From the IMG/VR virus record IMGVR_UViG_3300028591_000078, positions 160,001 to 224,000 of that record: a stretch of DNA of 64,000 nt; one strand, given 5' to 3'. This DNA comes from a virus (lineage: Duplodnaviria > Caudoviricetes). Within the stretch, counting starts at the first letter, position 1. The number at the start of each line of letters is the position of its first letter. The notes beneath the pieces were generated by a model that was not told the DNA's origin, did no database searches, and worked only from the letters and a program-made list of their open reading frames with translations. Position numbers and translations under genes: made by a program. Shown in pieces: positions 16,921 to 50,531 of the stretch.

Positions 16921-18294
16921 TTACAAATAATACTTCTCAACTGTATCTACTTCAAATACGAAGAGGTCTCCGTCATTCGTAGTGTAGTCTAACAGTCTGA
17001 TAGTATTATCATAGACAACGTAATTAATATCATCAAATAGGCGAAGGTTGTTCTGATATACTCTTAAAGTTGTAATACCAGGCAGATACTGAGGAATATA
17101 AAAAGGTATAACTCCTAAGTTAGCATCTACTCTAGTAGCATAAGAATGAGTTGTAATCTTATAATCACAATACAGCTTGACATTATAGGCATTCTGCTCA
17201 GCAGAATATACAAGACAGATATAATCACCCTTCTTATATAATCCTGTTGCTCTTGTGCCGTTTACATATACAATAGTTTCAGCTAATGTATTAAGTCTTA
17301 CTACAGCATTGTTATTAAGATTTCTTGTAAGTTTTACATTAATCTCAGTACCATCCTGAAGATTAATATCTGGTATGGTAAGTACTATAGTATCACCTGT
17401 ACCACTAGAAACAGTCTTATAAACCCCACGATAATTAGTAGCTATATCATCTATCTTATCATTGAGTTTATTATATACACCATTTACTGCAGCTGCTGTA
17501 GCAACTGTACTAGCATCATCTATAAGATAACTAGAAGTTGTTGAAGCAAGTCTGTTAGTAGGTATAGAATATTTGGTAATATATCCACCCTCTATAACTG
17601 TCTGATATCTTTCAGAACCAGATATATTGGTAGAATTGAAAGTAAAATCAAATGTGACTACATCATTTACTCTAATATTGCTGGGATCTAAGAATACCAA
17701 CATTCCATCAGCAGAAATAGTATAGTCAGATTGTCTATTAAGTCTAATACCATTCAGATATACATCCATGATATTTCCACCAGCGAAATATTCATCAAAT
17801 GGGAATGGTATTAATACAGAACTAGTACCATCATAACCAATTTTGGTCAGAGCTACATAGTTTCCTAAACGATATGTATTTGCTATAAGAGCTTCTACAC
17901 TCTCACCAGAAGATGTATATACACAACTAGCAAGAGTTCTAGGAGCAAGCTTCATACCAGTGATCTGATTCTCCATAGTAAAAGGCACCATGGAATAAGA
18001 TCCATATAAAGCATCTGCTTCTTCATTAGTAAAGATTCTTCTGAAGCCAGTAGCTTCATATACATAGAATCTCTGAACTGGTTCAAGATAATAAACCTTT
18101 CCCAATACACGATCAGTTATATAATCGGGTACTAACTGAGCTTCTATTGAAAAGTTTACTTCTATACGTACACCATCAGCAATATCATAGAATGCTCTGG
18201 TGCTATCTGTACATGCTATATACTGACCAGGAACTATATTAGTTTCTGGTACAAGTCGCAAAAGAGTTTTGACAAGCGATAACTCAGACGCCAT
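16921..18294 (-). CDS. putative virion structural (tail/baseplate) protein
   Basis: Beta-rich repeats IPFPF..Y..GGN..DVYLNG; paralogous to next gene. Confidence 0.6.
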   Translation of the reverse strand: MASELSLVKTLLRLVPETNIVPGQYIACTDSTRAFYDIADGVRIEVNFSIEAQLVPDYITDRVLGKVYYLEPVQRFYVYEATGFRRIFTNEEADALYGSYSMVPFTMENQITGMKLAPRTLASCVYTSSGESVEALIANTYRLGNYVALTKIGYDGTSSVLIPFPFDEYFAGGNIMDVYLNGIRLNRQSDYTISADGMLVFLDPSNIRVNDVVTFDFTFNSTNISGSERYQTVIEGGYITKYSIPTNRLASTTSSYLIDDASTVATAAAVNGVYNKLNDKIDDIATNYRGVYKTVSSGTGDTIVLTIPDINLQDGTEINVKLTRNLNNNAVVRLNTLAETIVYVNGTRATGLYKKGDYICLVYSAEQNAYNVKLYCDYKITTHSYATRVDANLGVIPFYIPQYLPGITTLRVYQNNLRLFDDINYVVYDNTIRLLDYTTNDGDLFVFEVDTVEKYYL

Positions 18295-38670: not shown

Positions 38671-38756
38671 GACTGTGCTCGAAAATGAGCACAGTCTTTT
38701 AAATTATTTTCTACAACCTATATAACTTAAGTGTTTTACACTTAAGTTATATAGGT
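38671..38756 (+). promoter_or_regulatory. type-A cassette leader: 10-bp hairpin plus 19-bp palindrome with GTTTTAC centre
   Basis: gactgtgctc/gagcacagtc and acctatataacttaagtgt-ttt-acacttaagttatataggt. Confidence 0.75.
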
Positions 38757-38784: not shown

Positions 38785-39513
38785 ATGTCTTTATGGGTTA
38801 ATGAAAATGGAGTAATGAAAGAGATTACTGATGTAAATAAAAGCAATGCTATAAATATAGTAAAACTTGGAATAGATGATCTTGATGTAACTGCTGATCA
38901 GGTAAAAAACTATATTATAAATTGGACTGGTTGGAATAAGGCAGCTTTTAATGATGAATATAAAGGTGAATTACTAATTCCTATAAAAACGGTTAATATT
39001 GGATGTGCCCCTGAGCTTATAGGAATTAATTATACAAGAGAATATTTTTATCAAGATGATATAGATGATAGTAATGATTATTCAAGTTATGACCTTTTTA
39101 TATTATCTAATACAACAACTACGGTAACAAAAACAACTATAGAAAGAATCGGATATAGCTATGTAGAAAGAGGAGATTTTGGAATCTCTGTAGATCTTAA
39201 TATATTACGTCAAGGAAAGTATGCTAATCTTAAAGCAGAATATTCTTATAGCATGCCTTTTACAACAGAAACTAATCAGGTTTCTACAACACGCAATGGT
39301 CGAACTATTACATATAGACCGGTAATGACACCTATGAAGTGCGTTGTAATGCATTTATCTGGATCAAATCTTATATTCTATCAGTCAGCAAATATTTATT
39401 CATATGGCGGAGAACATGAAACTACTTCTGCACTTAGAAATAATCTTAGAGTTCAAGCTAGTTCGACTGGTGGTAAAGGTATAGCAATGTACACTATACC
39501 TATATTACATTAA
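38785..39513 (+). CDS. variable tip cassette protein 1 (putative receptor-binding adhesin)
   Basis: MSLWVNENG N-terminus; body related to 46283..46972. Confidence 0.7.
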   Translation: MSLWVNENGVMKEITDVNKSNAINIVKLGIDDLDVTADQVKNYIINWTGWNKAAFNDEYKGELLIPIKTVNIGCAPELIGINYTREYFYQDDIDDSNDYSSYDLFILSNTTTTVTKTTIERIGYSYVERGDFGISVDLNILRQGKYANLKAEYSYSMPFTTETNQVSTTRNGRTITYRPVMTPMKCVVMHLSGSNLIFYQSANIYSYGGEHETTSALRNNLRVQASSTGGKGIAMYTIPILH

Positions 39514-39602
39514 GTAAATATTTCCAATTAATCTATGTATAACTTTATAATACTCTTGTACATATAGTCTTAGATGACTATATGTATAGGAGGTTATTAT
39601 AT

Positions 39603-39875
39603 ATGTCTAATAATAAGCAACCATTTTTATTTGACATAGATTCTGGAAATATTGGGGTAGGAGAAGATACTCCAATTATACAATTTAAGCATCCACCAAA
39701 GATTGTAGTATTATATCTATATGATACAAGAAGTATTTATAATCCTATGAAAGTTATAACTCTTCATCAAGATACTTCTAAACACATCTTTGGTACTAAC
39801 TATGTAGAACTACAAGGAAAATATCTAATATTTAATATGAGTACCGATGGTTTCTCATGGCTAGCATTTTTCTAA
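39603..39875 (+). CDS. tip-like domain lacking the conserved N-terminal peptide
   Basis: PKIVVLY similar to PKFxxxFY/PKAFVVAY of cassettes; own plain late promoter at 39541-39552. Confidence 0.5.
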   Translation: MSNNKQPFLFDIDSGNIGVGEDTPIIQFKHPPKIVVLYLYDTRSIYNPMKVITLHQDTSKHIFGTNYVELQGKYLIFNMSTDGFSWLAFF

Positions 39876-39879
39876 AACT

Positions 39880-39909
39880 AATCCCTAGGGTATTAATACC
39901 CTAGGGATT
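39880..39909. terminator. perfect 30-bp palindrome / bidirectional terminator
   Basis: aatccctagggtatt-aataccctagggatt. Confidence 0.75.
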
Positions 39910-39916
39910 TATTGTT

Positions 39917-40345
39917 TTAATAGAAGATGATTAGTTCACCATCTTCATATTTATAACTACTGCTACCATACGTTGTAGAATCGGATCCATTTGAAATTTC
40001 AATAGATAATTTTTTAGTTGAATCATTATAGGAATATTTATAATGATATCGTCCAGTACTACCATTATTATTATTTATTCCTACAAAGCTACCACTAGAC
40101 CCTGAACTAGTATCTATGTTTAATCTGTCAACTCCATCACTATTAATACCAGAAGAACTTGGTTCTGTATATCTATAAAAACACATACAAAATTTTGGAG
40201 CGCTAGGAAGATCAACAGTTTTATTTAATGAACCAGTACTGGTTGATGCTTTAAAAGATTTTATTCCTGTTAATCCAGAACCAGCAGCAAGATATTCATC
40301 AGTTAAACTAGTTACAGTACCATCTTCATTAGCATATATTGCCAT
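39917..40345 (-). CDS. variable tip cassette protein 2
   Basis: MAIYANEDG; body related to 40930..41337. Confidence 0.7.
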   Translation of the reverse strand: MAIYANEDGTVTSLTDEYLAAGSGLTGIKSFKASTSTGSLNKTVDLPSAPKFCMCFYRYTEPSSSGINSDGVDRLNIDTSSGSSGSFVGINNNNGSTGRYHYKYSYNDSTKKLSIEISNGSDSTTYGSSSYKYEDGELIIFY

Positions 40346-40393
40346 AATAAGCCTCCTTATGAATGTAAATAAATTTTATTCCTATTTATTTTG

Positions 40394-40423
40394 CTAAACT
40401 TAAAAGTAAACTTTTAAGTTTAG
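40394..40423 (-). promoter_or_regulatory. type-B leader palindrome
   Basis: ctaaacttaaaagt-aa-acttttaagtttag; identical copies at 41386 and 47019, inverted copy at 48960. Confidence 0.8.
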
Positions 40424-40505
40424 TCGAAAATTAAAAATTACATACTCACATGCTGCCTAAGTATATGAGTGGTAAAAATTTTTGATCAAATTAATTTTTA
40501 AATGA

Positions 40506-40534
40506 CTAAACTTTCAGTTTTACTGAAAGTTTAG
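40506..40534 (+). promoter_or_regulatory. type-C leader palindrome
   Basis: ctaaactttcagt-ttt-actgaaagtttag. Confidence 0.75.
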
Positions 40535-40557
40535 GAAAGAAAGAGAAATGCATTTTT

Positions 40558-40890
40558 ATGGCTGTATATGCTAATGAAGATGGTACTATTAAAAATCTGA
40601 CTGATATAACTAATACTGGTTTTACAAAAATTACAATGGGAATTATAGGTTCTAAGGGTACTATATCAAAAAATGTTGGTTTTACTATAAAACATTGTTT
40701 ATTTATTGGAATTAGAGAAAGTGGCGGAGACAGTTATCCTGAAATACAGTCTAATACATTTGCGGTTGATAGTGGATCTATATATGTAGGAGGATATGAT
40801 TACGCAAATGTATCATTTTCTGGAACTACTATTTCCTATAGTAATAATGGTAGTAGCAACAGAAATGTTGTTTATATAGCATTTGGATAA
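40558..40890 (+). CDS. variable tip cassette protein 3
   Basis: MAVYANEDG; ends in YIAFG. Confidence 0.7.
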   Translation: MAVYANEDGTIKNLTDITNTGFTKITMGIIGSKGTISKNVGFTIKHCLFIGIRESGGDSYPEIQSNTFAVDSGSIYVGGYDYANVSFSGTTISYSNNGSSNRNVVYIAFG

Positions 40891-40895
40891 ATAAA

Positions 40896-40922
40896 ATCCC
40901 TAGGGTAAAATACCCTAGGGAT
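40896..40922. terminator. bidirectional terminator, near-identical to 39880
   Basis: atccctagggta-aaa-taccctagggat. Confidence 0.75.
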
Positions 40923-40929
40923 ATTTATT

Positions 40930-41337
40930 TTAATAAAAGACTATCATTAGACAATCCTCATATTTTCTATCTTCTGAAGTTTGATTGGTACCAGCGTGTC
41001 CATTATTTATACTAATTACTAGCTGTTTTGTTGATTCTATATAATTATAGGTATATAAATAACTGTTTGGTATACTTCCATTTGAATCAAATTTACCAAC
41101 CCAATGGCCACTTAGATTAACAGAATATCCTAGATATGAGTGATATTCAAGGCCACCAGCAGTACCACTTATAAGTTTATTATATGTATAAAAACATAAA
41201 ACAAATTTTGGCTTGCTATCAAGCGTTATAGTAGTCGATTTAGTAAAAGCTTTTATTCCTGTTAGCCCAGAATCAACAGCAAGATATTCACCAGTTAAAT
41301 CAGATATAGTACCATCTTCATTAGCGTATATAGCCAT
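40930..41337 (-). CDS. variable tip cassette protein 4
   Basis: MAIYANEDG. Confidence 0.7.
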   Translation of the reverse strand: MAIYANEDGTISDLTGEYLAVDSGLTGIKAFTKSTTITLDSKPKFVLCFYTYNKLISGTAGGLEYHSYLGYSVNLSGHWVGKFDSNGSIPNSYLYTYNYIESTKQLVISINNGHAGTNQTSEDRKYEDCLMIVFY

Positions 41338-41385
41338 AGTAAACCTCCTTATGAATGTATTTTATTTTTATTCCTATTTATTTTG

Positions 41386-41415
41386 CTAAACTTAAAAGTA
41401 AACTTTTAAGTTTAG
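41386..41415 (-). promoter_or_regulatory. type-B leader palindrome
   Basis: Identical to 40394-40423. Confidence 0.8.
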
Positions 41416-41522
41416 TTGCTTGTAAAATTTTACATATGGCCATACTGCCTAAGTATAAGAATGATTAAAATTCTATATTTGATTAAATAATAAAGCCGTA
41501 GGGAAATTCCCTACGGCTAATT

Positions 41523-42107
41523 TTATTCATCATCGTATACACTAGAAAGTTCTTTTCCAATATCTGTAACTCCAGCTTCATCATTAGATATCTGCTCTGT
41601 TGCTTCCTCATCTTCATTAAATGATTTTGCTGCCCATTCAGATATACCAATATCTTTAGTATCTTGGACGAATTCATCTTTACGAGTATATACTTTTATA
41701 GCATCAAGTACATATTGATCGAGCTTCATAGCATCTATGAGTTTTAATATATTAGGACTCAATCCATACTCTGACCCACATTCAAATAAACGCTCTTTAG
41801 CAACTCCAAGTATTGCCAGATAATACTCATCTTCAGTATTGAAATCACGTCTATTTAAAGATGCTATCTTGATTGCATCCTGTGCTACCTGATCAATCTG
41901 TTCGAGAATAAGTGTAAGATAGTCATCTACATCCATAGTGACTTCAGATTTTGCAGACTTCTTTCTACGAATCTCTAAGATCAACATAGCAAGATTTACC
42001 ATTACAAGTACTACTACTGCTACTATAAGTAAAACACTAGTAGCCTCATTCTCAGGTGTCATTACCTCGGGATGAGATTCTGCACTAAGTAAAATAGTAT
42101 TCATCAT
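41523..42107 (-). CDS. single-TM membrane protein
   Basis: Hydrophobic helix followed by RRKK; acidic C-terminus. Confidence 0.6.
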   Translation of the reverse strand: MMNTILLSAESHPEVMTPENEATSVLLIVAVVVLVMVNLAMLILEIRRKKSAKSEVTMDVDDYLTLILEQIDQVAQDAIKIASLNRRDFNTEDEYYLAILGVAKERLFECGSEYGLSPNILKLIDAMKLDQYVLDAIKVYTRKDEFVQDTKDIGISEWAAKSFNEDEEATEQISNDEAGVTDIGKELSSVYDDE

Positions 42108-42124
42108 CTTAAACCCTCCTCTTA

Positions 42125-43777
42125 TTAGCATACATAGTTATTATTCGTATTATTATTAGCAACAATTCCAGACAGTCCTTTACCTCTTAAGAGGTTATTG
42201 CTGAAAATGTTGTTCTGGCCATTTACATATATTGTATACTCATCATCTTTGTAGTCTTTAGGATCACCATTTCCACGGACTATAGTATTATATGCAAAAA
42301 TATTGTATTTCGGTACTACATCTGTAGAACCCTGAGCAGCATTCAGCAGAGCGATACCAATCTTGCAATTAATAAGATGATTATTCTCTATCTTATTATA
42401 CTGAGTATTAGAGTAGAAAGATGCTACATAGATACCAAGATTACAATCTATGGCTTTAGAGAATACTATAGAGTTTGTATAGCAAGGAGTATTGACATCA
42501 GATATTATCCAGAAGCCATACTTACAATTCTTAGCAGTACAGTTCTCTATAATATTATTATCTCCAGTAATCTTGATACCATGTCTACACTCTACAGTAA
42601 CATTCTCGATTCTATTATTGTTACCATGTACACATATATTACCCCAAGGACGTTCAATAGGACCAATAAGTCCCATAGAAGATATACTGAGATTTCTAAG
42701 AGTTATTCCAGAACCCTTGATATCAAATACATACTGCTCAGTCTTCTTATCAAACATATCCATATGTATAGAGTTGGTAATCTTAACACCAGATTCACCT
42801 ACTATTTCAACATCGTTTCTATTGATAATAATAGGCTTTCTGGTAGTATATGAATTATATGCTTTAAGAAGAACTATCTTTCTAGCATTCACATTATTGA
42901 GCAGCTTGGCAAATACTTCATGAAGAGAATCATCCTGTCCAACAACGAAGTCTGCACCTGTATATTCAGGACCTATAGTATATACCTTAGGTTCGAGTCT
43001 TACTATCGGAACTTTAGTATCTCTATATACTAACTGATTACCCTCAAACTGAATAGCTTCGAGTTTCATCAGCATTTCAGGAGACATAAGTCCAGACTTA
43101 TAATAGGTTACAAGGTTATTATCAGCCTTACTATCCCAAGATGAAATCTGCTCATCAGATACATGACGGATATTCTCATTAGAAGGATGGATATAATTAT
43201 TAGCATTATAGTCTATAGACTTAAGCTTATCATAGTCCTTTGCTGTAATAAGACCATCGATCTCACTAGTAGCAAGAGGATAAGTGAACATCTTTAAAGC
43301 TACCCACTTACCAGCAGTGTAACGATATCCTATGCCTTCATCATTTACTGGCACAAACCAGCCCTCTTCTATATTACTAAGACCAGAATACTTCTGTTTA
43401 AATTCTTCAGTATTCTTTACTGCTGGCTGCCATTTCATACCCATAGTAGCAGCTGCAATTTTATTATCAGTTTCACTACGAGTATACTTATCAAAGATCT
43501 TAGATCTTTCTTCTTTAGTAATATGAATAATAGCGTTATTAGTATGGGATCTAAGCTCAGATCTTACAAGGTCTGCTTTAGCCTTAGAGCCCTTAACAGA
43601 CTCTTTATTATTCCATTCATCAGTCTTCTCTTTAGTAAGATGAATATTCTGATTAGTTATATGAGCGAGCATTCTCTCATATATTATAGGATCAACAGAG
43701 ACATTCTCCTGAGTAATATTAGTAGTAGTTTCTTCTGCCTTAGAAGAATTGTCTGATATAATTCCAATCGGTTTCAA
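42125..43777 (-). CDS. tail spike with pectin-lyase-like beta-helix (putative depolymerase)
   Basis: N-terminal HITxEE..W/GLMS fibre motifs; C-terminal GxNNxIEN beta-helix repeats. Confidence 0.7.
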   Translation of the reverse strand: MKPIGIISDNSSKAEETTTNITQENVSVDPIIYERMLAHITNQNIHLTKEKTDEWNNKESVKGSKAKADLVRSELRSHTNNAIIHITKEERSKIFDKYTRSETDNKIAAATMGMKWQPAVKNTEEFKQKYSGLSNIEEGWFVPVNDEGIGYRYTAGKWVALKMFTYPLATSEIDGLITAKDYDKLKSIDYNANNYIHPSNENIRHVSDEQISSWDSKADNNLVTYYKSGLMSPEMLMKLEAIQFEGNQLVYRDTKVPIVRLEPKVYTIGPEYTGADFVVGQDDSLHEVFAKLLNNVNARKIVLLKAYNSYTTRKPIIINRNDVEIVGESGVKITNSIHMDMFDKKTEQYVFDIKGSGITLRNLSISSMGLIGPIERPWGNICVHGNNNRIENVTVECRHGIKITGDNNIIENCTAKNCKYGFWIISDVNTPCYTNSIVFSKAIDCNLGIYVASFYSNTQYNKIENNHLINCKIGIALLNAAQGSTDVVPKYNIFAYNTIVRGNGDPKDYKDDEYTIYVNGQNNIFSNNLLRGKGLSGIVANNNTNNNYVC

Positions 43778-43836
43778 TTGAAGTCCTCCCTTCAAAATTT
43801 GGTGGTCGGGATAGATATCTATCCCGACCGATTTAT

Positions 43837-45054
43837 TTAAAGATCTTCAGGATGGATCTCAGCATCATAAGAGTATCCATGAGGATGCATTGCAGTTGTA
43901 GGAACATGACGCATTGCAGGTCTAAGATCATGATGGTCAAGATCCCATCTGTCCTTAGATATCTGGTAATATCTCATACACTTAAGAGATTCCAAGCAAG
44001 GATCAGGTACAGTAAACAGCGATGCAGATGTACCAGCTTCAAGCTTGATATATTCTATAGTAGCATCTGCTTCAGAAGAAGCCATAAGTCCTACATAGTA
44101 ATTATCTACAGGCTCAGCGATATTGAATGTATACATATTCAGACCACTAGCACCACAGAGCTTAGTACCATTGGTAGCAGTAAGCAGATAGATATTAGCA
44201 CTACCAGTAAGCTTAGCAGAAAGTGTATAGTTTCCAGCAGGAAGATGCTCTATGTACTGTACTATATTACCACCAGTAGCAAATCTTACTCTGATAGGAT
44301 TGGACAGATAGAGTCCAGTATCATCAGCAAATATCTTACAACCATTAGTATACCATCTATCAACAGTATAACCAGTGATATCATAAGATACTTCTTCTCT
44401 CTGATTTATATAGAAAGAAGGATTGATAAGTATATTAGGTTTAGATGTAGACTGATCATAGGTAGCAGAACCACCTTCAGATTCTGTATTACATCTTACA
44501 AGTTCGAGTGCAGGATCAGGATCTACATACATAGTACCATTTTCACCATGCTCGATCTTTACATACTGAAGAATTATATCTTCACCAGAGTACACTCTGA
44601 TAACGAACTCATTGGTTACAGTATTATATACTATTCTAGGACCAATCTGAGTTACCTGTTCCTGATAGAAATAGCTATTATTGGTAGCATCTCTAATAAA
44701 TGCATCCCATGTAGCTTCATATCCAACAGTCTTACAAGAGATAGAAAAGAGACTTCCTACCTCTATATTTCTAGTAAGCTTCTGAGATATATTAATATAA
44801 GCATCAGAAGTACCACTTACTCTTACTCTGAGACCCTGTTCTACAGGATTTATCTCAAAAGATACATCAGGAGACTGAGAGCTTGTAACAGTCCAGTTAT
44901 TTACACATGATTTATTGAATTCTGTATAAGAATCTTTACCCGAAGTATTGATCTTAAAGTTTGAATTGATCAAAAGATTGGGGTTGCATATAGTATTAGG
45001 CGAGACGATTCTGGCATTTCCAGCAATCATGTTGCTTCCAATTGCAAGAGACAT
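43837..45054 (-). CDS. tail protein with two carbohydrate-binding-like modules
   Basis: Duplicated PNLLINxxFxIN..YxKxExG..PDP..E..C module typical of phage tail fibre CBM domains. Confidence 0.65.
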   Translation of the reverse strand: MSLAIGSNMIAGNARIVSPNTICNPNLLINSNFKINTSGKDSYTEFNKSCVNNWTVTSSQSPDVSFEINPVEQGLRVRVSGTSDAYINISQKLTRNIEVGSLFSISCKTVGYEATWDAFIRDATNNSYFYQEQVTQIGPRIVYNTVTNEFVIRVYSGEDIILQYVKIEHGENGTMYVDPDPALELVRCNTESEGGSATYDQSTSKPNILINPSFYINQREEVSYDITGYTVDRWYTNGCKIFADDTGLYLSNPIRVRFATGGNIVQYIEHLPAGNYTLSAKLTGSANIYLLTATNGTKLCGASGLNMYTFNIAEPVDNYYVGLMASSEADATIEYIKLEAGTSASLFTVPDPCLESLKCMRYYQISKDRWDLDHHDLRPAMRHVPTTAMHPHGYSYDAEIHPEDL

Positions 45055-45141
45055 ATAGGATTTCCTCCTTTTGAATTGATATTTAATATAAAGTTAAGAG
45101 AAGCAATATTAAACCCTACCCATATGGGTAGGGTTAATGTA

Positions 45142-46176
45142 TTAGGTATGAGTTCCATACAGGTATCCAGCAGGACAAGTTGTAGTATCTGCAGCTCTAG
45201 TACCAAATCCTATATTTCTTAAACAGCTAAGATAATAGTAGCTATCACCAGTAGAAGTCTTATGATTCTCAGTTGTTTCAGCAAGACTACTTGCATAGTT
45301 TGCATTTATTGCATTTAATGCAGAGCCACCAGCAGAATCTGATCCGGCATAATTATGTGTATGGGACTTAGGAGCATAAGCAGTGTCATGGTTATGAGTA
45401 GCAATAGCAAAGTATGAATCAGGTCTATATGCCGCGCTATCTATAGCATGAACCTTTATATTCTGAACAGAACCATTTATAGTAAACTGTATATTACCAT
45501 TTATAGAGCTTTCAGCAGCACTTGTAACACCAGTATTAGTGATTGTAGATCCAGTTACATTTATACCAGTACCACCAGTATATGCAGTACCAGCAGGCAG
45601 AGGTGCAGTTGCAGTATGATCATCACCATATGTATATACAATATTACCGTTTTCGACATTGATAGACTTTACATATGTACCCTTGATATTATTACCGCTC
45701 TGATCAGCAATAGCCTTATCAGCAGTACCATGAATATTACCAGTAAATCCATACTGCGATCCAATGCTACCATCATCACATACATAGAGATGTCCTATAA
45801 CAGCGCCATCGTGAAAGTATATATGCTTAGCGATATGAGTTTCACCCTGATCATTTATAAGGGCAATACCAGTTTCACCAGTATCAGAGATCTTATATCC
45901 ATTGATTGAATCTGCATTCAGATCAGGCATAGAATCTACAGTAGTTTTCAACCATTCTTTATCTACAGATATAGTACCAGTAGATGCGATATAGATTATA
46001 CCTTCACCGGCCTTAATAGATGATCCACTACCAGGATCTACATAGTCATCATATATATAATATACTGTCTTGGTGTTATGATTAATCTCACCAGTACTAA
46101 TCTTCAAAAGCCATTCGGATTTCTTTATTGGAACAGGCTCATTATTACGATTTTTAAGTCCGTTTATTACAGGCAT
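45142..46176 (-). CDS. short tail fibre protein
   Basis: Shares HNHDxAYAPKSHTHNYAGSxSAGG and the C-terminal LRxxxxGTxAAxTTxCPxGxxYGxH motif with the giant fibre. Confidence 0.7.
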   Translation of the reverse strand: MPVINGLKNRNNEPVPIKKSEWLLKISTGEINHNTKTVYYIYDDYVDPGSGSSIKAGEGIIYIASTGTISVDKEWLKTTVDSMPDLNADSINGYKISDTGETGIALINDQGETHIAKHIYFHDGAVIGHLYVCDDGSIGSQYGFTGNIHGTADKAIADQSGNNIKGTYVKSINVENGNIVYTYGDDHTATAPLPAGTAYTGGTGINVTGSTITNTGVTSAAESSINGNIQFTINGSVQNIKVHAIDSAAYRPDSYFAIATHNHDTAYAPKSHTHNYAGSDSAGGSALNAINANYASSLAETTENHKTSTGDSYYYLSCLRNIGFGTRAADTTTCPAGYLYGTHT

Positions 46177-46250
46177 TGAATACTCCTCCTTTTATAAAGT
46201 GTATTTTAATATAAAGTTAATACTCTCCAAATAGCTAGTGATAGAAGAAT

Positions 46251-46278
46251 TACCCATGTACCAATTGGTACATGGGTA
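46251..46278. terminator. perfect 28-bp palindrome / terminator
   Basis: tacccatgtaccaa-ttggtacatgggta. Confidence 0.7.
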
Positions 46279-46282
46279 TATA

Positions 46283-46972
46283 TTAATCATCAAAAGTAAG
46301 AATATTGAATACTCTAACTTTATCATTACCTGGATATACAGATATATTTGATTTGGCTTGAGATTTTGTAACACTACTATTTAACTGAAAAGCTTGTGAT
46401 ATAATAAAATTATTACCACTAAGAGTATATAGCATTACATTACTGTCAACTCCTCTAAATCCTGGTTTATATGGATATATAATGTATTGTGATTGCCCAG
46501 AACCTATTTGAATCGGAGCTCCACTTAATTCGAGCATAGCCCACGAATAACCAGTATTATTGGAATAATAACTTTGACCTTGTTTTAACTTATACCATGA
46601 CTGGGAACTAATAAGTTCATTTTGAAAACTATAAATAGTATTAGTACTTGTGGCTGTCAAACTTGTATATACTTCATCTGTATAAGTAGTTGCATCAGCA
46701 TCTGGATCATCACTTCGAAAATTTAAAGCAATATAAGAAGGTGTACATCCAAGATCTATAGTCTTTATTGGAATTACAAAATTTTCCATATTTGCATATG
46801 TTGATGTAGGAGTTTTAGTTCCCCATCTAGGATAATTATTAATTATAGTGCTTCTAAATTCAGCAGGACTCATATCACAAGTATCGCTAGTAATTTTAAA
46901 AGTTTGAAAGAACTTGGCACTTGCTTTACTAAGATCTTTAATACTACCATTCTCATTAACATATACTGCCAT
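46283..46972 (-). CDS. variable tip cassette protein 5
   Basis: True start MAVYVNENG after GAGGTG. Confidence 0.7.
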   Translation of the reverse strand: MAVYVNENGSIKDLSKASAKFFQTFKITSDTCDMSPAEFRSTIINNYPRWGTKTPTSTYANMENFVIPIKTIDLGCTPSYIALNFRSDDPDADATTYTDEVYTSLTATSTNTIYSFQNELISSQSWYKLKQGQSYYSNNTGYSWAMLELSGAPIQIGSGQSQYIIYPYKPGFRGVDSNVMLYTLSGNNFIISQAFQLNSSVTKSQAKSNISVYPGNDKVRVFNILTFDD

Positions 46973-47018
46973 ACTAAGGCACCTCACGTTCATTAAATTT
47001 TTATTCCTATTTATTTTG

Positions 47019-47048
47019 CTAAACTTAAAAGTAAACTTTTAAGTTTAG
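47019..47048 (-). promoter_or_regulatory. type-B leader palindrome
   Basis: Identical to 40394-40423. Confidence 0.8.
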
Positions 47049-47091
47049 TCGAAAATTAAAAATTACATACGGCCATAGCGAGGCAATATAT

Positions 47092-47220
47092 GATCATACC
47101 CATTTTAGGGTATGATCTTTGAAATATTTTTCTATAACCTATATAACTTATTGGTTTTACCAATAAGTTATATAGGTTTAAATCGTGTAAAACACTTAAG
47201 TTATATAGGTGTAAAATTTT
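47092..47220 (+). promoter_or_regulatory. type-A leader (covariant hairpins plus extra flipped half-palindrome)
   Basis: gatcataccc/gggtatgatc; aacctatataacttattggt-ttt-accaataagttatataggtt; gtgtaaaacacttaagttatataggt. Confidence 0.75.
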
Positions 47221-47237
47221 GAAGGAAGGTTTGATAT

Positions 47238-47990
47238 ATGTCTTTATGGGTTAATGAAAATGGTACTATGAAAGAAATTGCTACAGATAAGGATAGTACT
47301 GGTGCATATAAATGTACTAGAGATCTTGTATACTGTAAATGGTCATATAACAATGTAGCACGAGAAGGATATCAAGGATATCAGGGTATTACTGCTGCTA
47401 CATTAGGATTAACAAAAACTATATTAGTTGATAAAAAGACTGGTTCTGGTCAGAGTGGATCTTATTCATATCCATCTCGTGATATAAGTATAAAAGATCT
47501 TGATGAAAGTTATAAAAAGACTATTTATACTGGAACATTTCCTCGTAATATGTGTCCAAATGCAGCAATGGTATCACAAATCAGAACTGATACACTAATC
47601 AGTTCTGATACTGGTTTGGTTTTAAAACAATATTTTATTAGTAATACTGCTGAATTTGATAAGTTTTTAGAAGTTGGTGATTCTTTTAGTAGTATTGTTG
47701 GATGCGGATACCCAATTGCAGATGATTATAGTAATAATGCCTCTAAATCTAGTGACCCTAGAAATTGGTCGTCAAAAGTTGAACTGAGAGCTATGGGAGA
47801 ATGCTTAGATGGTATTAATTATAGATTCTATGTAGTACTAGCTAGAACTTCTGACATTACAGAACAGGCAGCTTTAACTACAAAACTGTATTCTTATCAT
47901 AGATTAAATTCTCCAGGATTTGATTATAAATGGATTGGTACTTATTTAATTCAACATATACCATCATACACTGAATATACTATAGAATAA
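47238..47990 (+). CDS. variable tip cassette protein 6
   Basis: MSLWVNENG; body unrelated to cassette 1. Confidence 0.7.
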   Translation: MSLWVNENGTMKEIATDKDSTGAYKCTRDLVYCKWSYNNVAREGYQGYQGITAATLGLTKTILVDKKTGSGQSGSYSYPSRDISIKDLDESYKKTIYTGTFPRNMCPNAAMVSQIRTDTLISSDTGLVLKQYFISNTAEFDKFLEVGDSFSSIVGCGYPIADDYSNNASKSSDPRNWSSKVELRAMGECLDGINYRFYVVLARTSDITEQAALTTKLYSYHRLNSPGFDYKWIGTYLIQHIPSYTEYTIE

Positions 47991-47996
47991 TATAAA

Positions 47997-48021
47997 ACCC
48001 GTGTACCATTGGTACACGGGT
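47997..48021. terminator. terminator, covariant copy of 46251 palindrome
   Basis: acccgtgtacca-t-tggtacacgggt. Confidence 0.7.
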
Positions 48022-48053
48022 ATATTATTTTATTGAAAGCTCATTACGTTACC

Positions 48054-48371
48054 TTAATTGTATGCCTTTGTCTGTAAGTATATGATCTCATAGCCATATT
48101 CTTTTGCACAGATGTGTTCTATATTACATCCACGTGCAGTATTATATCCATCTACAAATGCAACGACATCTGCATTAGACATAAGCTTGAGACTGTCTGC
48201 AAGATACCATAATGGCTTAGCATCTACAGGAGCATCCTTGAAGAAACTATCGATGATTTCTATCTCTTCTTCTCTATATCTTTCCTTTATTTCCTTGATT
48301 GCCTCTTCTCGTGTAGCAAGAATCTGCTCATCTGAGAGACTTCTCATCGGCTGAGAGATAAATACCTTCAT
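48054..48371 (-). CDS. DUF4406-like (nucleoside deoxyribosyltransferase-fold) protein
   Basis: MKVFISQPM..ADVVAF..ARGCNIEH motif. Confidence 0.7.
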   Translation of the reverse strand: MKVFISQPMRSLSDEQILATREEAIKEIKERYREEEIEIIDSFFKDAPVDAKPLWYLADSLKLMSNADVVAFVDGYNTARGCNIEHICAKEYGYEIIYLQTKAYN

Positions 48372-48425
48372 AACTATATCATCCTTTCTTTTGAATATAT
48401 TATATAGTTATTGAGGATTTGCCTT

Positions 48426-48830
48426 TTAATACACTACAAATACACCATACTTTATTGAACTGTCACTTTTTACAATTAGTGTTGTTGCATTATTTGTATC
48501 TTTTGCTAAGTTAATATATGCTCCACCTCTACCAGCATTAACACTATAGTTCCAACCTATATTTCTACTAGTAATTTCCTCACCATTATAAGTAGTAAAT
48601 ACCATATCTTCAACTTTTATTATTACTGGAACTCTTACTGTAGTTTCTGTCTCCACATGGAGAGGTATAAGTACTATATATTTATAATTAGTATAATTAG
48701 GTATACTAACAGAATCATCCGTTGTTCTAGTACCAAAATATTTGATACCATTTATTACAAATCCATTACTATAATCTGTTTTTTCAGTTAAGTTTTTTAA
48801 AGTTCCATTTTCATTTGCATAAATAGCCAT
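48426..48830 (-). CDS. variable tip cassette protein 7
   Basis: MAIYANENG; DYxxGFVINGIKY subfamily. Confidence 0.7.
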   Translation of the reverse strand: MAIYANENGTLKNLTEKTDYSNGFVINGIKYFGTRTTDDSVSIPNYTNYKYIVLIPLHVETETTVRVPVIIKVEDMVFTTYNGEEITSRNIGWNYSVNAGRGGAYINLAKDTNNATTLIVKSDSSIKYGVFVVY

Positions 48831-48845
48831 AAAATCAAAATCCTC

Positions 48846-48877
48846 CTAAACTTTTCAAGTAAACTTGAAAAGTTTAG
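48846..48877 (-). promoter_or_regulatory. type-C leader palindrome
   Basis: ctaaacttttcaagt-aa-acttgaaaagtttag. Confidence 0.75.
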
Positions 48878-48959
48878 TCATTTAAAAATTAATTTGATCA
48901 AAAATTTTGGCTATTCATATACGGCCACAATGTGGTCGTATGTAATTTTTAATTTTTGA

Positions 48960-48989
48960 CTAAACTTAAAAGTTTACTTTTAAGTTTAG
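48960..48989 (+). promoter_or_regulatory. type-B leader palindrome (inverted copy)
   Basis: ctaaacttaaaagt-tt-acttttaagtttag. Confidence 0.8.
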
Positions 48990-49037
48990 CAAAATAAATA
49001 GGAATAAAAATTATTTACGATCATAAGGAGGCTTACT

Positions 49038-49493
49038 ATGGCCGTATATGTTAATGAGAATGGTACAGTGCAAACGTTAGCTACAGATGGCGAACCATTA
49101 AACATGTCAGTTCAACATTATACAGCAAAATTTATTTATGCATATGCTCAGAGTAATCCATGGCGTGGATCTGGCTTTGAAGACCAAAGTTTTACTTTAC
49201 CATTTACTCCAAAAGCTTTTGTTGTAGCTTATGATAATGCAAAAATGCCAGTAGAACACGCTGACAGTACAAACAGTCATCGTATTATAACATCAAGAGA
49301 TATTGCAATAGGTGATAACTCAATAGATATAACTGCCTCTTTTACCACTAACCATAAAAGCGTTTATTATCATTATTTTAAAATTAATGGTAATACAGTC
49401 ACTATACCAAAGACTACATATACTAGTTTTGCTCTTCCTTCGGTAGCATCTCACACTTTCATAATAAATTTTGATGTAATCTTTTTCTATTAA
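49038..49493 (+). CDS. variable tip cassette protein 8
   Basis: MAVYVNENG. Confidence 0.7.
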   Translation: MAVYVNENGTVQTLATDGEPLNMSVQHYTAKFIYAYAQSNPWRGSGFEDQSFTLPFTPKAFVVAYDNAKMPVEHADSTNSHRIITSRDIAIGDNSIDITASFTTNHKSVYYHYFKINGNTVTIPKTTYTSFALPSVASHTFIINFDVIFFY

Positions 49494-49531
49494 ACAAAAT
49501 TTACCCACAGGGAAAACCCTGTGGGTATTTA

Positions 49532-49966
49532 TTATGTAAGTCCGAATACAAGATACTTAGGATAATAGTTTGCACCATTGTCATGAAACTTAATATTTAA
49601 TCCAGTAGAATTTATTAGAGTTGCTTTTATTATTAATCCACCTCTACCAGCAGAACCACTATAGGCCCATCCAACAGATCTAGTAGTTGCTCCATTAAGG
49701 CCTCCAGAAGTTTGAAAAGTTAAAGGTGTTTCTAATATAAACATTCCACAAGAAAGTCGCATGCTTGCGGTAGGATCATCAGGCTGTATAGGAAGTCCTA
49801 TGATATATTTATATCCTGTATAATTAGCAATATCAATTCCGACTTCAGTACTAGCATGCTCTACAGTACCAAGATACTTGATACCATTGATTACAAAACC
49901 ATCACCATAGTCAGTCTTGTTGGTCAGTTCTTTCATTACACTGTTTTCATTAGCATAAATCGCCAT
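49532..49966 (-). CDS. variable tip cassette protein 9
   Basis: True start MAIYANENS; body related to 48426..48830. Confidence 0.7.
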   Translation of the reverse strand: MAIYANENSVMKELTNKTDYGDGFVINGIKYLGTVEHASTEVGIDIANYTGYKYIIGLPIQPDDPTASMRLSCGMFILETPLTFQTSGGLNGATTRSVGWAYSGSAGRGGLIIKATLINSTGLNIKFHDNGANYYPKYLVFGLT

Positions 49967-49991
49967 AACTCTTAAATCTCCCATATATAAA

Positions 49992-50074
49992 ATTTTCAGT
50001 TTTATGGCTTAAGAATTATTACTAAGAACTTCTTAGTAATAATTCTTAAGGTGAATTATGATAAAACTGAAAAT
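49992..50074. promoter_or_regulatory. type-D shared leader: 21-1-21 palindrome inside 14-bp outer inverted repeat
   Basis: cttaagaattattactaagaa-c-ttcttagtaataattcttaag (50008-50050); attttcagttttat/ataaaactgaaaat. Confidence 0.75.
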
Positions 50075-50096
50075 AAAATCATAGAAGGTTTTATTT

Positions 50097-50531
50097 ATGG
50101 CAGTATATGCAAATGAAAATGGCAATATTAAGGAATTAACTAGTAAGGTAGACCTTGGTAATGGCTTTGTTATAAACGGTATAGAATACTTAGGAGAATA
50201 TCTTCCTTCTCAAAGAGATGGAACTTTTACTTTACCAAAACCATATACAAGCTATAAGTATTTAGTTGTGTATGATTTCTATGGTAAGAAAAATAATGGA
50301 GAAGCTAGCTGGACTAATGTAAAACAGCATTCATGCCTAGAATTTATAGATACATCACTGATTAATCCAAGTGATAGATACACATATGATGGATATATGG
50401 TTGGAGGGGATGATCCAACTACAAGTAACAAATTATGCTGTATTATTGAATTTGGTAATACTACGACATTAAGTATAGACTGTGGAAATTATTATAGTTA
50501 TAATAGTATAAAATTTTTCGGTATATACTAA
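50097..50531 (+). CDS. variable tip cassette protein 10
   Basis: MAVYANENG; GFVINGIEY subfamily. Confidence 0.7.
   Translation: MAVYANENGNIKELTSKVDLGNGFVINGIEYLGEYLPSQRDGTFTLPKPYTSYKYLVVYDFYGKKNNGEASWTNVKQHSCLEFIDTSLINPSDRYTYDGYMVGGDDPTTSNKLCCIIEFGNTTTLSIDCGNYYSYNSIKFFGIY

Follow-up and report, generated by a model that had tools for sequence, protein, structure and literature searches.

Leader type and protein body are decoupled in a ten-gene array beside the tail-fibre genes of an uncultured large phage

The 64,000-nucleotide stretch analysed here (the window) covers positions 160001-224000 of a 238,365-bp IMG/VR virus record, IMGVR_UViG_3300028591_000078, with an estimated completeness of 97%. 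Window positions 38785-50531 carry a 12-kb array of ten small genes (cassettes c1-c10), each consisting of an upstream leader of one of four types, a constant N-terminal peptide (the tag) and a variable protein body. Leader type and protein body are decoupled in this array: the four leader types cut across the body families, and a common leader is found in only 2 of the 5 pairs of cassettes that have the same body. This discordance requires recombination, with scattered breakpoints and portable leader cores. We assign a probability of roughly 0.6 to the explanation that the cassettes form a paralogous family with portable control modules, and that general homologous recombination and gene conversion re-pair their parts. 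This would be mix-and-match evolution of the kind usual in phage genes, seen here in a tidy new form, and it calls for no new mechanism. The data comprise one assembly, together with close relatives known only as proteins from Logan/ENA assemblies.

Exactly ten open reading frames (ORFs) in the entire genome begin with the pattern M..[YWF].NE[NDS][GSN], and all of them are located in the array. They start with either MA[IV]Y[AV]NE[ND]G or MSLWVNENG, and the common start peptide is 9-16 residues long. Leader A precedes c1 (38785-39513, + strand, 242 amino acids (aa)) and c6 (47238-47990, +, 250 aa). Leader B is found upstream of c2 (39917-40345, − strand, 142 aa), c4 (40930-41337, −, 135 aa), which is a 992-nt tandem copy of the c2 unit, c5 (46283-46972, −, 229 aa) and c8 (49038-49493, +, 151 aa). 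Leader C belongs to c3 (40558-40890, +, 110 aa) and c7 (48426-48830, −, 134 aa), and leader D to c9 (49532-49966, −, 144 aa), which carries the NENS variant of the tag, and c10 (50097-50531, +, 144 aa). There are four head-to-head pairs: c2 with c3 (leaders B and C), c5 with c6 (B and A), c7 with c8 (C and B) and c9 with c10 (both D).

Leaders of the same type are closely similar. The type A leaders of c1 and c6 are 95.7% identical over 47 nt and share a second block, and the type C leaders of c3 and c7 are 87% identical over 109 nt. Type B leaders show 92-100% identity over 53-98 nt (c2-c5, 100% over 72 nt; c4-c5, 100% over 53 nt; c5-c8, 98.7% over 76 nt; c2-c8, 95.9% over 98 nt), and type D consists of one 43-nt palindrome that is common to c9 and c10 and is read both ways. 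The core of every leader type is a perfect AT-rich palindrome with a 13-21-bp stem, followed in all ten leader copies by a ribosome-binding site (RBS) and ATG. No copy of the leader palindromes was found elsewhere in the 238,365-bp genome, whose remaining long palindromes are mostly GC-cored and terminator-like.

Protein bodies were compared by BLASTP after removal of the first 16 residues. Family I unites the long bodies of c1 and c5 (25% identity over 205 aa, E=2e-9), in which the motifs IPIKT, GC.P and LSG.N.I are invariant; family II consists of c2 and c4 (43% identity) and family III of c7 and c9 (39% identity). The body of c10 shares only about 42 N-proximal residues with those of c7 and c9, lacks the AGRGG motif and is different in the remainder. 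The bodies of c3, c8 and c6, the last of them a long one, have no significant partner among the cassettes. An earlier reading of this DNA, made from its letters alone (the sequence-only reading), had proposed the decoupling of leaders and bodies, and most of its examples hold: c1 and c5 have a common body behind leaders A and B, type B leaders precede three body types (c2/c4, c5 and c8), and the leader C cassettes c3 and c7 have different bodies, their proteins matching only to residue 19. The similarity that it saw between the c7 body and those of c9 and c10 is confirmed for c9 and, in c10, is restricted to the N-proximal segment. It had also described c1 and c6 as having the same leader and unrelated bodies; the leader is indeed common and protein similarity is confined to residues 1-28, but "unrelated" is true only for sequence searches. 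A gapped blastn high-scoring pair between c3 and c7 reached +132, of which the part past about +57 was rejected because protein similarity stops at residue 19.

Because leaders of different types cannot be aligned with each other, a cluster-level contingency test was used in place of trees. Random assignment reaches the observed concordance in 22% of trials (P=0.22), and the two concordant pairs are the tandem copies c2/c4 and c9/c10 with their single palindrome. Leader modules are therefore paired with variable bodies almost at random. Identity over coding nucleotides 1-30 follows leader type when type A is included (P=0.026) and does not when it is left out (P=0.24), so that the coupling runs only through type A; it is not coupled to body family either (P=0.49). 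The tag-coding stretch is accordingly a third unit beside leader and body.

The sequence-only reading had placed the crossovers in this stretch, more precisely in the NE[ND]G codons. The corresponding sequence AATGARRATGG occurs nine times in the window, as compared with 0.24 expected, each time at the 5' end of a cassette; c9 is missed owing to its NENS. Codons 2-9 have a mean synonymous divergence (pS) of 0.52 and a mean nonsynonymous divergence (pN) of 0.16, and the tag is encoded with all four codons for Ala and with several for Ile, Tyr, Glu and Gly. Given this free synonymous variation, the tag is kept as a peptide and not as a DNA site. It is present in 10/10 cassettes and in 14/14 representatives of the tagged family among 1.84 billion proteins; the family is thus small and confined to this phage lineage.

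Mosaicism is also seen in the coding DNA. In the first 48 coding nt, the pairwise homoplasy index (PHI) was 0.443, as opposed to 0.549 in permutations (P=0.01), and 161 of 325 site pairs were incompatible. Homology tracts end at different places, from +28 to +32 in the B pairs, at +45 in c1/c6 and at about +100 in c7/c9/c10, and the tracts between c7 and c9/c10 start at -2. In the most recent exchanges (c2-c5, c4-c5 and c5-c8), the common part is only the leader core, from about -123 to -50, with 96-100% identity. The RBS region and N-terminal codons beside these cores have diverged; in c5, this is true of the RBS region next to a core that is 100% identical. Since the youngest leader copies share the core alone, the youngest events did not use the coding stretch, and both ends of these 50-100-nt tracts lie in non-coding DNA. 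Leader copies are far more alike than the adjoining coding DNA, and so leader and body do not have one common history. The longest exact runs of 5' coding sequence across leader types (c2-c3, 23 nt; c3-c4, 20 nt; c7-c10, 17 nt) all connect close neighbours in inverted orientation, and exact identity in the 5' coding region of most pairs amounts to 6-12 nt, compared with 51-72 nt in the B leaders. Two relatives are chimeric with respect to c2 and c4: P0011 combines a c4-type N-terminus (residues 11-22) with a c2-type body, and P0014 has 27 c2-type N-terminal residues on a strongly diverged body. The 236.7-kb relative that encodes P0014 shows 94% identity in the neighbouring 698-aa protein. Thus, the proposal that recombination reassorts leaders and bodies is supported by the discordance, the PHI result and the chimeric relatives, whereas its localization to the NE[ND]G codons is not borne out, with tracts ending anywhere from +28 to about +100, some starting at -2, and the youngest of them confined to leader cores.

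These data bear on one alternative, that bodies have not been shuffled at all. Leader and gene would then have been duplicated as units, leader tree and gene tree would coincide, and fast divergence of the bodies would make the c1/c5 and c7/c9 similarities misleading. The short cassettes do form one family with a common core motif and C-terminal strand, and their bodies evolve fast: between close relatives, c7 is 75-84% identical, as against 90-94% for the neighbouring 698-aa protein. Moreover, c3 has no significant body match, even to c7 with its leader of the same type. However, c1 and c5 share both the long architecture (229-242 aa) and the 205-aa similarity across leaders A and B, and c5 has no comparable match to other B cassettes. 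Likewise, c7 resembles c9 across leaders C and D far beyond the 19 residues that it shares with c3. Codons with a pS of 0.52 must be older than leader cores that are still 100% identical, and the PHI signal and the chimeric P0011 also speak against duplication as units. We consider this alternative distinctly unlikely.

Another possibility is that the leader cores are themselves mobile or self-propagating, palindrome-bearing units, similar to miniature inverted-repeat transposable elements or to the promoter-early stem-loop (PeSL) cassettes discussed below, that insert before tagged genes with no involvement of the N-terminal codons. In its favour, the youngest common tracts are leader cores with both ends non-coding, the palindromes are restricted to the array, and c6 has a 33-nt partial leader duplication along with a variant palindrome. 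Nevertheless, the cores are found only before tagged genes and always in the same polarity, and no target-site duplications, transposase or homing nuclease were seen next to the array. The mosaic signal in the first 48 coding nt would be left unexplained as well, and we regard this possibility as unlikely.

We favour re-pairing by general homologous recombination. The ten cassettes would constitute one fast-evolving paralogous family of small β-sandwich proteins, each gene being equipped with a portable control module in which an insulating hairpin and an AT-rich stretch are combined with a long palindrome and an RBS. These parts would have been repeatedly re-paired by homologous recombination and gene conversion, both between paralogs and in exchange with related phages, apparently in two layers. 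In the recent layer, leader cores of 50-100 nt would have been copied or converted, each tract having non-coding DNA at its two ends. The older one would comprise short-tract exchanges from the RBS to about codon 20-30, in which the shared peptide-coding stretch may supply microhomology, above all between neighbouring inverted cassettes. The driver is probably the UvsX-like recombinase of the phage itself, encoded at record positions 236741-237983 (+ strand), outside the window (phrog_97, E=2e-34); RecT was not found in the genome. Both the enzyme responsible and the direction of the individual transfers are what we infer from these patterns.

The head-to-head pairs also recall programmed DNA inversion. 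In the Gin system of Mu, Cin of P1, Min of p15B and the R64 shufflon, a dedicated invertase acting at defined sites fuses the constant part of a gene to alternative C-terminal segments. Like these systems, the array has inverted repeats and combines a constant N-terminal part with putative receptor-binding parts that vary, but each of its cassettes forms a complete gene that has a start and a leader of its own, and no invertase was detected. If systems of this kind or invertible promoters served as the model, crossovers would take place at the conserved 5' coding ends, and the 130-265-bp control regions between them would flip, changing within a phage population the leader that each tip gene receives. 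Four head-to-head pairs do have inverted 5' ends flanking short control regions; those of c2 and c3 are 81% identical over 53 nt, including the 23-nt exact run, and the same B-C control region is present in both orientations in the genome. However, the inverted 5' ends, 73-94% alike overall, show synonymous variation (pS 0.52) and have only an 11-nt degenerate core in common, and, as the genes beside the two B-C regions differ, these cannot be alternative states of a single switch. The loop polarity relative to the gene is the same in all eight full A, B and C palindromes, so that no flip is recorded in the assembly. Searches of the 97%-complete genome for serine, tyrosine and IS110-type recombinases found none: Resolvase (PF00239), Phage_integrase (PF00589) and the DEDD domain of IS110 (PF01548) gave no match, whereas controls matched. 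Programmed inversion thus seems very unlikely. A recombinase-free host-range switch, in which UvsX-driven high-frequency inversion at the tag-coding ends would flip control regions in the population and leader types would represent expression classes, is in our estimate very improbable too. Such a switch would change which plug-in receptor-binding modules, sharing the same N-terminal hairpin dock, are made in quantity.

Several points weigh against re-pairing by homologous recombination. The exchanges are deduced from one assembly, none having been seen directly and no breakpoint having been dated, and the PHI result rests on 26 informative sites in 48 saturated nt. The body families rest on weak similarity (25-43%) within a hypervariable family, and the fold matches of the model described below lie under the level that the search tool calls distinctive. 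High identity of the leader cores could reflect purifying selection on regulatory sequence instead of recent conversion, which would also fit the freely varying central patch inside an otherwise conserved control region.

Despite their sequence diversity, the small bodies are related at a deeper level. An alignment of the seven short cassettes with their relatives shows a shared core, [LI]P..PK[FY] followed by a hydrophobic strand, and a shared C-terminal strand (hydrophobic-F-[YG] end); a profile of the short cassettes also matches the core of c5. This points to one common β-sandwich core. An AlphaFold model of c7, based on 23 sequences, is a β-sandwich (predicted local distance difference test score (pLDDT) 78, predicted template modelling score 0.68) in which the tag forms a β-hairpin (residues 3-5 and 11-13) with NENG at the turn, where pLDDT is only about 55. 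Fold comparison of this model gave its best matches to distal domains in the fibres, spikes and baseplate proteins of phages, a consistent theme, with Z scores of 4.4-6.0 that fall below the tool's distinctive level. The top matches in VIA (Z 4.6-6.0) were to the phi812 baseplate protein, phage K gp144, a Klebsiella tailspike and T7 gp17, all below that tool's typical chance level, and Foldseek with the c7 model returned nothing at E<=0.001. PHROGs and Pfam contained no significant match for any cassette, and PDB sequence searches with the cassettes gave nothing. On the basis of the model and the location of the genes, the cassette proteins are probably tail-tip or receptor-binding accessory proteins that would dock through the conserved N-terminal β-hairpin. 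A feature search of a protein atlas placed c1 nearest to clusters of the monalysin/aerolysin/ETX-MTX2 type (score 0.94, 158 features in common); this aerolysin/ETX-like lead found no support from Pfam, PDB or an AF2 (AlphaFold) model of c1 (pLDDT 31).

The Dda-like helicase of this phage is about 31% identical to its counterparts in Bacillus phages AR9 and PBS1. AR9 late promoters have the consensus AACA-N6-TA/G, about 35-45 nt upstream of the start codon (PMC5312081), and AR9-type AACA-N6-TA is found upstream of about 35 genes in the present genome, 35-45 nt from the start codon. On these two grounds the phage is classed as an AR9-like jumbo phage; it is uncultured and has RNA polymerases of its own. 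Copies of the form AACAT-N5-TAA are seen, for example, upstream of window 16921-18294 and of 33480.

In the array, no B, C or D cassette is preceded by this late promoter. Of the two type A cassettes, c6 has AACA-N6-TT and c1 has TACA, and the palindrome arms are degenerate look-alikes of the AR9-type promoter. Sigma-70-like promoter sites are not enriched (58 versus 71.7 expected). All eight full A, B and C palindromes carry a T-rich loop on the sense strand, which fits a fixed polarity, such as that of a hairpin in the 5' untranslated region (UTR). The leader palindromes may serve as promoter or 5'-UTR elements. A role as ordinary terminators was rejected, as they are AT-rich and have no T tails, and separate GC-rich hairpins fill that role.

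The leader A palindrome of c1 (38716-38756) has a 19-bp stem, and a palindrome scan placed the leader B palindrome of c4 at 41386-41415. The divergent control region between c2 and c3 (40346-40557) contains a B palindrome (40394-40423), a central GC-rich patch and a C palindrome (40506-40534). That between c7 and c8 (48831-49037) is its inverted copy, with a C palindrome (48846-48877), a central hairpin (48917-48943) and a B palindrome (48960-48989). Over about 175 nt the two regions are nearly the same (about 95% identity by eye), the exception being the 16-nt GC-rich central patch, which forms the hairpin in the c7-c8 copy, whereas identity is only about 80% in the adjoining start and N-terminal codons. 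Between c5 and c6 (46973-47237), a B palindrome (47019-47048) is followed by a variant A palindrome (47136-47178) and a half A copy (47185-47220), and c9 and c10 share a single central D palindrome (50008-50050) in their control region (49967-50096). In the c6 leader (47136-47220), the inner stem of the variant palindrome differs from that of c1 by matching changes in both arms. The half copy, 33 nt on, is identical to the right arm of c1 except that its loop is AAA and not TTT, which creates the AACA-N6-TT in the sense direction.

GC-rich central hairpins of the divergent control regions were noted at 40528-40545, 48917-48943, 47086-47120 and 38671-38696, flanked by TACATAC and TATATGA; their inner 16 nt are wholly different between copies, while the leader cores on either side are 92-100% identical. 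The hairpin at 48917-48943 is terminator-like by score, and GC-rich hairpins with T runs are found upstream of the A leader of c1 and the B leader of c8. The central hairpin may be an insulating bidirectional terminator. Most cassettes are also followed by a GC-rich terminator-like hairpin on the 3' side (19 such sites versus 3.9 expected).

The closest known parallel to this organization is provided by the PeSL cassettes of T4-type phages, which combine an AT-rich stretch, a promoter, a stem-loop, a Shine-Dalgarno sequence and a start codon (Arbiol et al. 2010, PMC2839356; Comeau et al. 2014, PMC4122927). They occur in several subclasses before small variable genes in plastic regions and are substrates for homologous recombination that reshuffles genes (PMC2839356, PMC4122927). 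The array likewise has repeated composite intergenic modules in several subclasses before small variable genes. In contrast to the G/C-rich terminator stems of PeSL cassettes, its modules are 13-21-bp perfect AT-rich palindromes, they show no enrichment of sigma-70-type promoters in an AR9-like phage that has RNA polymerases of its own, and they are restricted to one 12-kb array of a single gene family, where they are coupled to an N-terminal peptide that all members share. PeSL cassettes are documented by promoter activity, mini-circles and exchange between sequenced relatives, whereas the array is known here from sequence alone.

A short constant N-terminal peptide on highly diverse small proteins encoded at a polymorphic locus is also known from the internal proteins of T-even phages, in which it targets the capsid (Rao and Black 2010, PMC3012670); in T4, this peptide directs proteins to the prohead core and is then cleaved off (PMC3012670). 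The array resembles this system in placing a constant peptide on diverse small proteins, but its genes flank tail-fibre genes and its modelled bodies appear to resemble fibre-tip domains. This position and fold argue weakly against prohead targeting. The conserved 5' sequence of T-even internal-protein genes was reportedly proposed by Repoila et al. in 1994 to mediate gene replacement. Conserved glycine-rich motifs between the hypervariable segments of gp38 adhesins are similarly said to have been proposed as recombination linkers. Those linkers lie inside one gene; in the array, by contrast, ten separate genes have the constant element at their N-terminus, and reassortment extends to the regulatory module. 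Trojet et al. (2011, PMC3157838) present gp38 adhesins and tail-fibre mosaics of T4-type phages as small host-range proteins and complex modular determinants.

No usable related array was found by megablast and tblastn against GenBank phages or when IMG/VR and JGI metagenomes were scanned with the c7 protein and the 698-aa neighbour as queries. Searches of IMG/VR with DNA patterns of the B palindrome and the tag gave either no match or only SspB-like chance matches. The array stands as a compact natural example of three-part modularity, with control module, docking tag and variable body, in a host-range region. In evolutionary terms, modular shuffling of the PeSL or linker-sequence kind, described for T4-type phages, would also apply to a jumbo phage that has RNA polymerases of its own. 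Should the tag prove to be a universal docking peptide, the array would illustrate how many small receptor-binding modules can be carried and re-paired by one large phage, and the tag would provide a handle for finding such modules and their docking partner.

The array encloses tail-fibre or spike genes for proteins of 344, 405 and 556 aa (phrog_4492 tail fiber, NosD-like β-helix) together with a gene for a 202-aa protein of unknown function (41523-46176, − strand). Cassette c5 is encoded on the same strand as the tail-fibre genes and is located upstream of them. A scan of the gene starts of the genome did not find the late-promoter consensus before the tail-fibre genes at 42125-46176; these are separated by GC-rich hairpins and may be transcribed from the B leader of c5. 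Behind c1, the ORF at 39582-39875 (+ strand, 97 aa) was considered as an untagged member of the family and rejected, as the family profile gives no match. It has neither tag nor leader, although a PPK-plus-hydrophobic-strand motif and a hydrophobic C-terminal end recall the cassette core. Between c6 and c7, the array also includes a DUF4406 gene (48054-48371, − strand) of a nucleoside 2-deoxyribosyltransferase-like family (E=3.7e-5).

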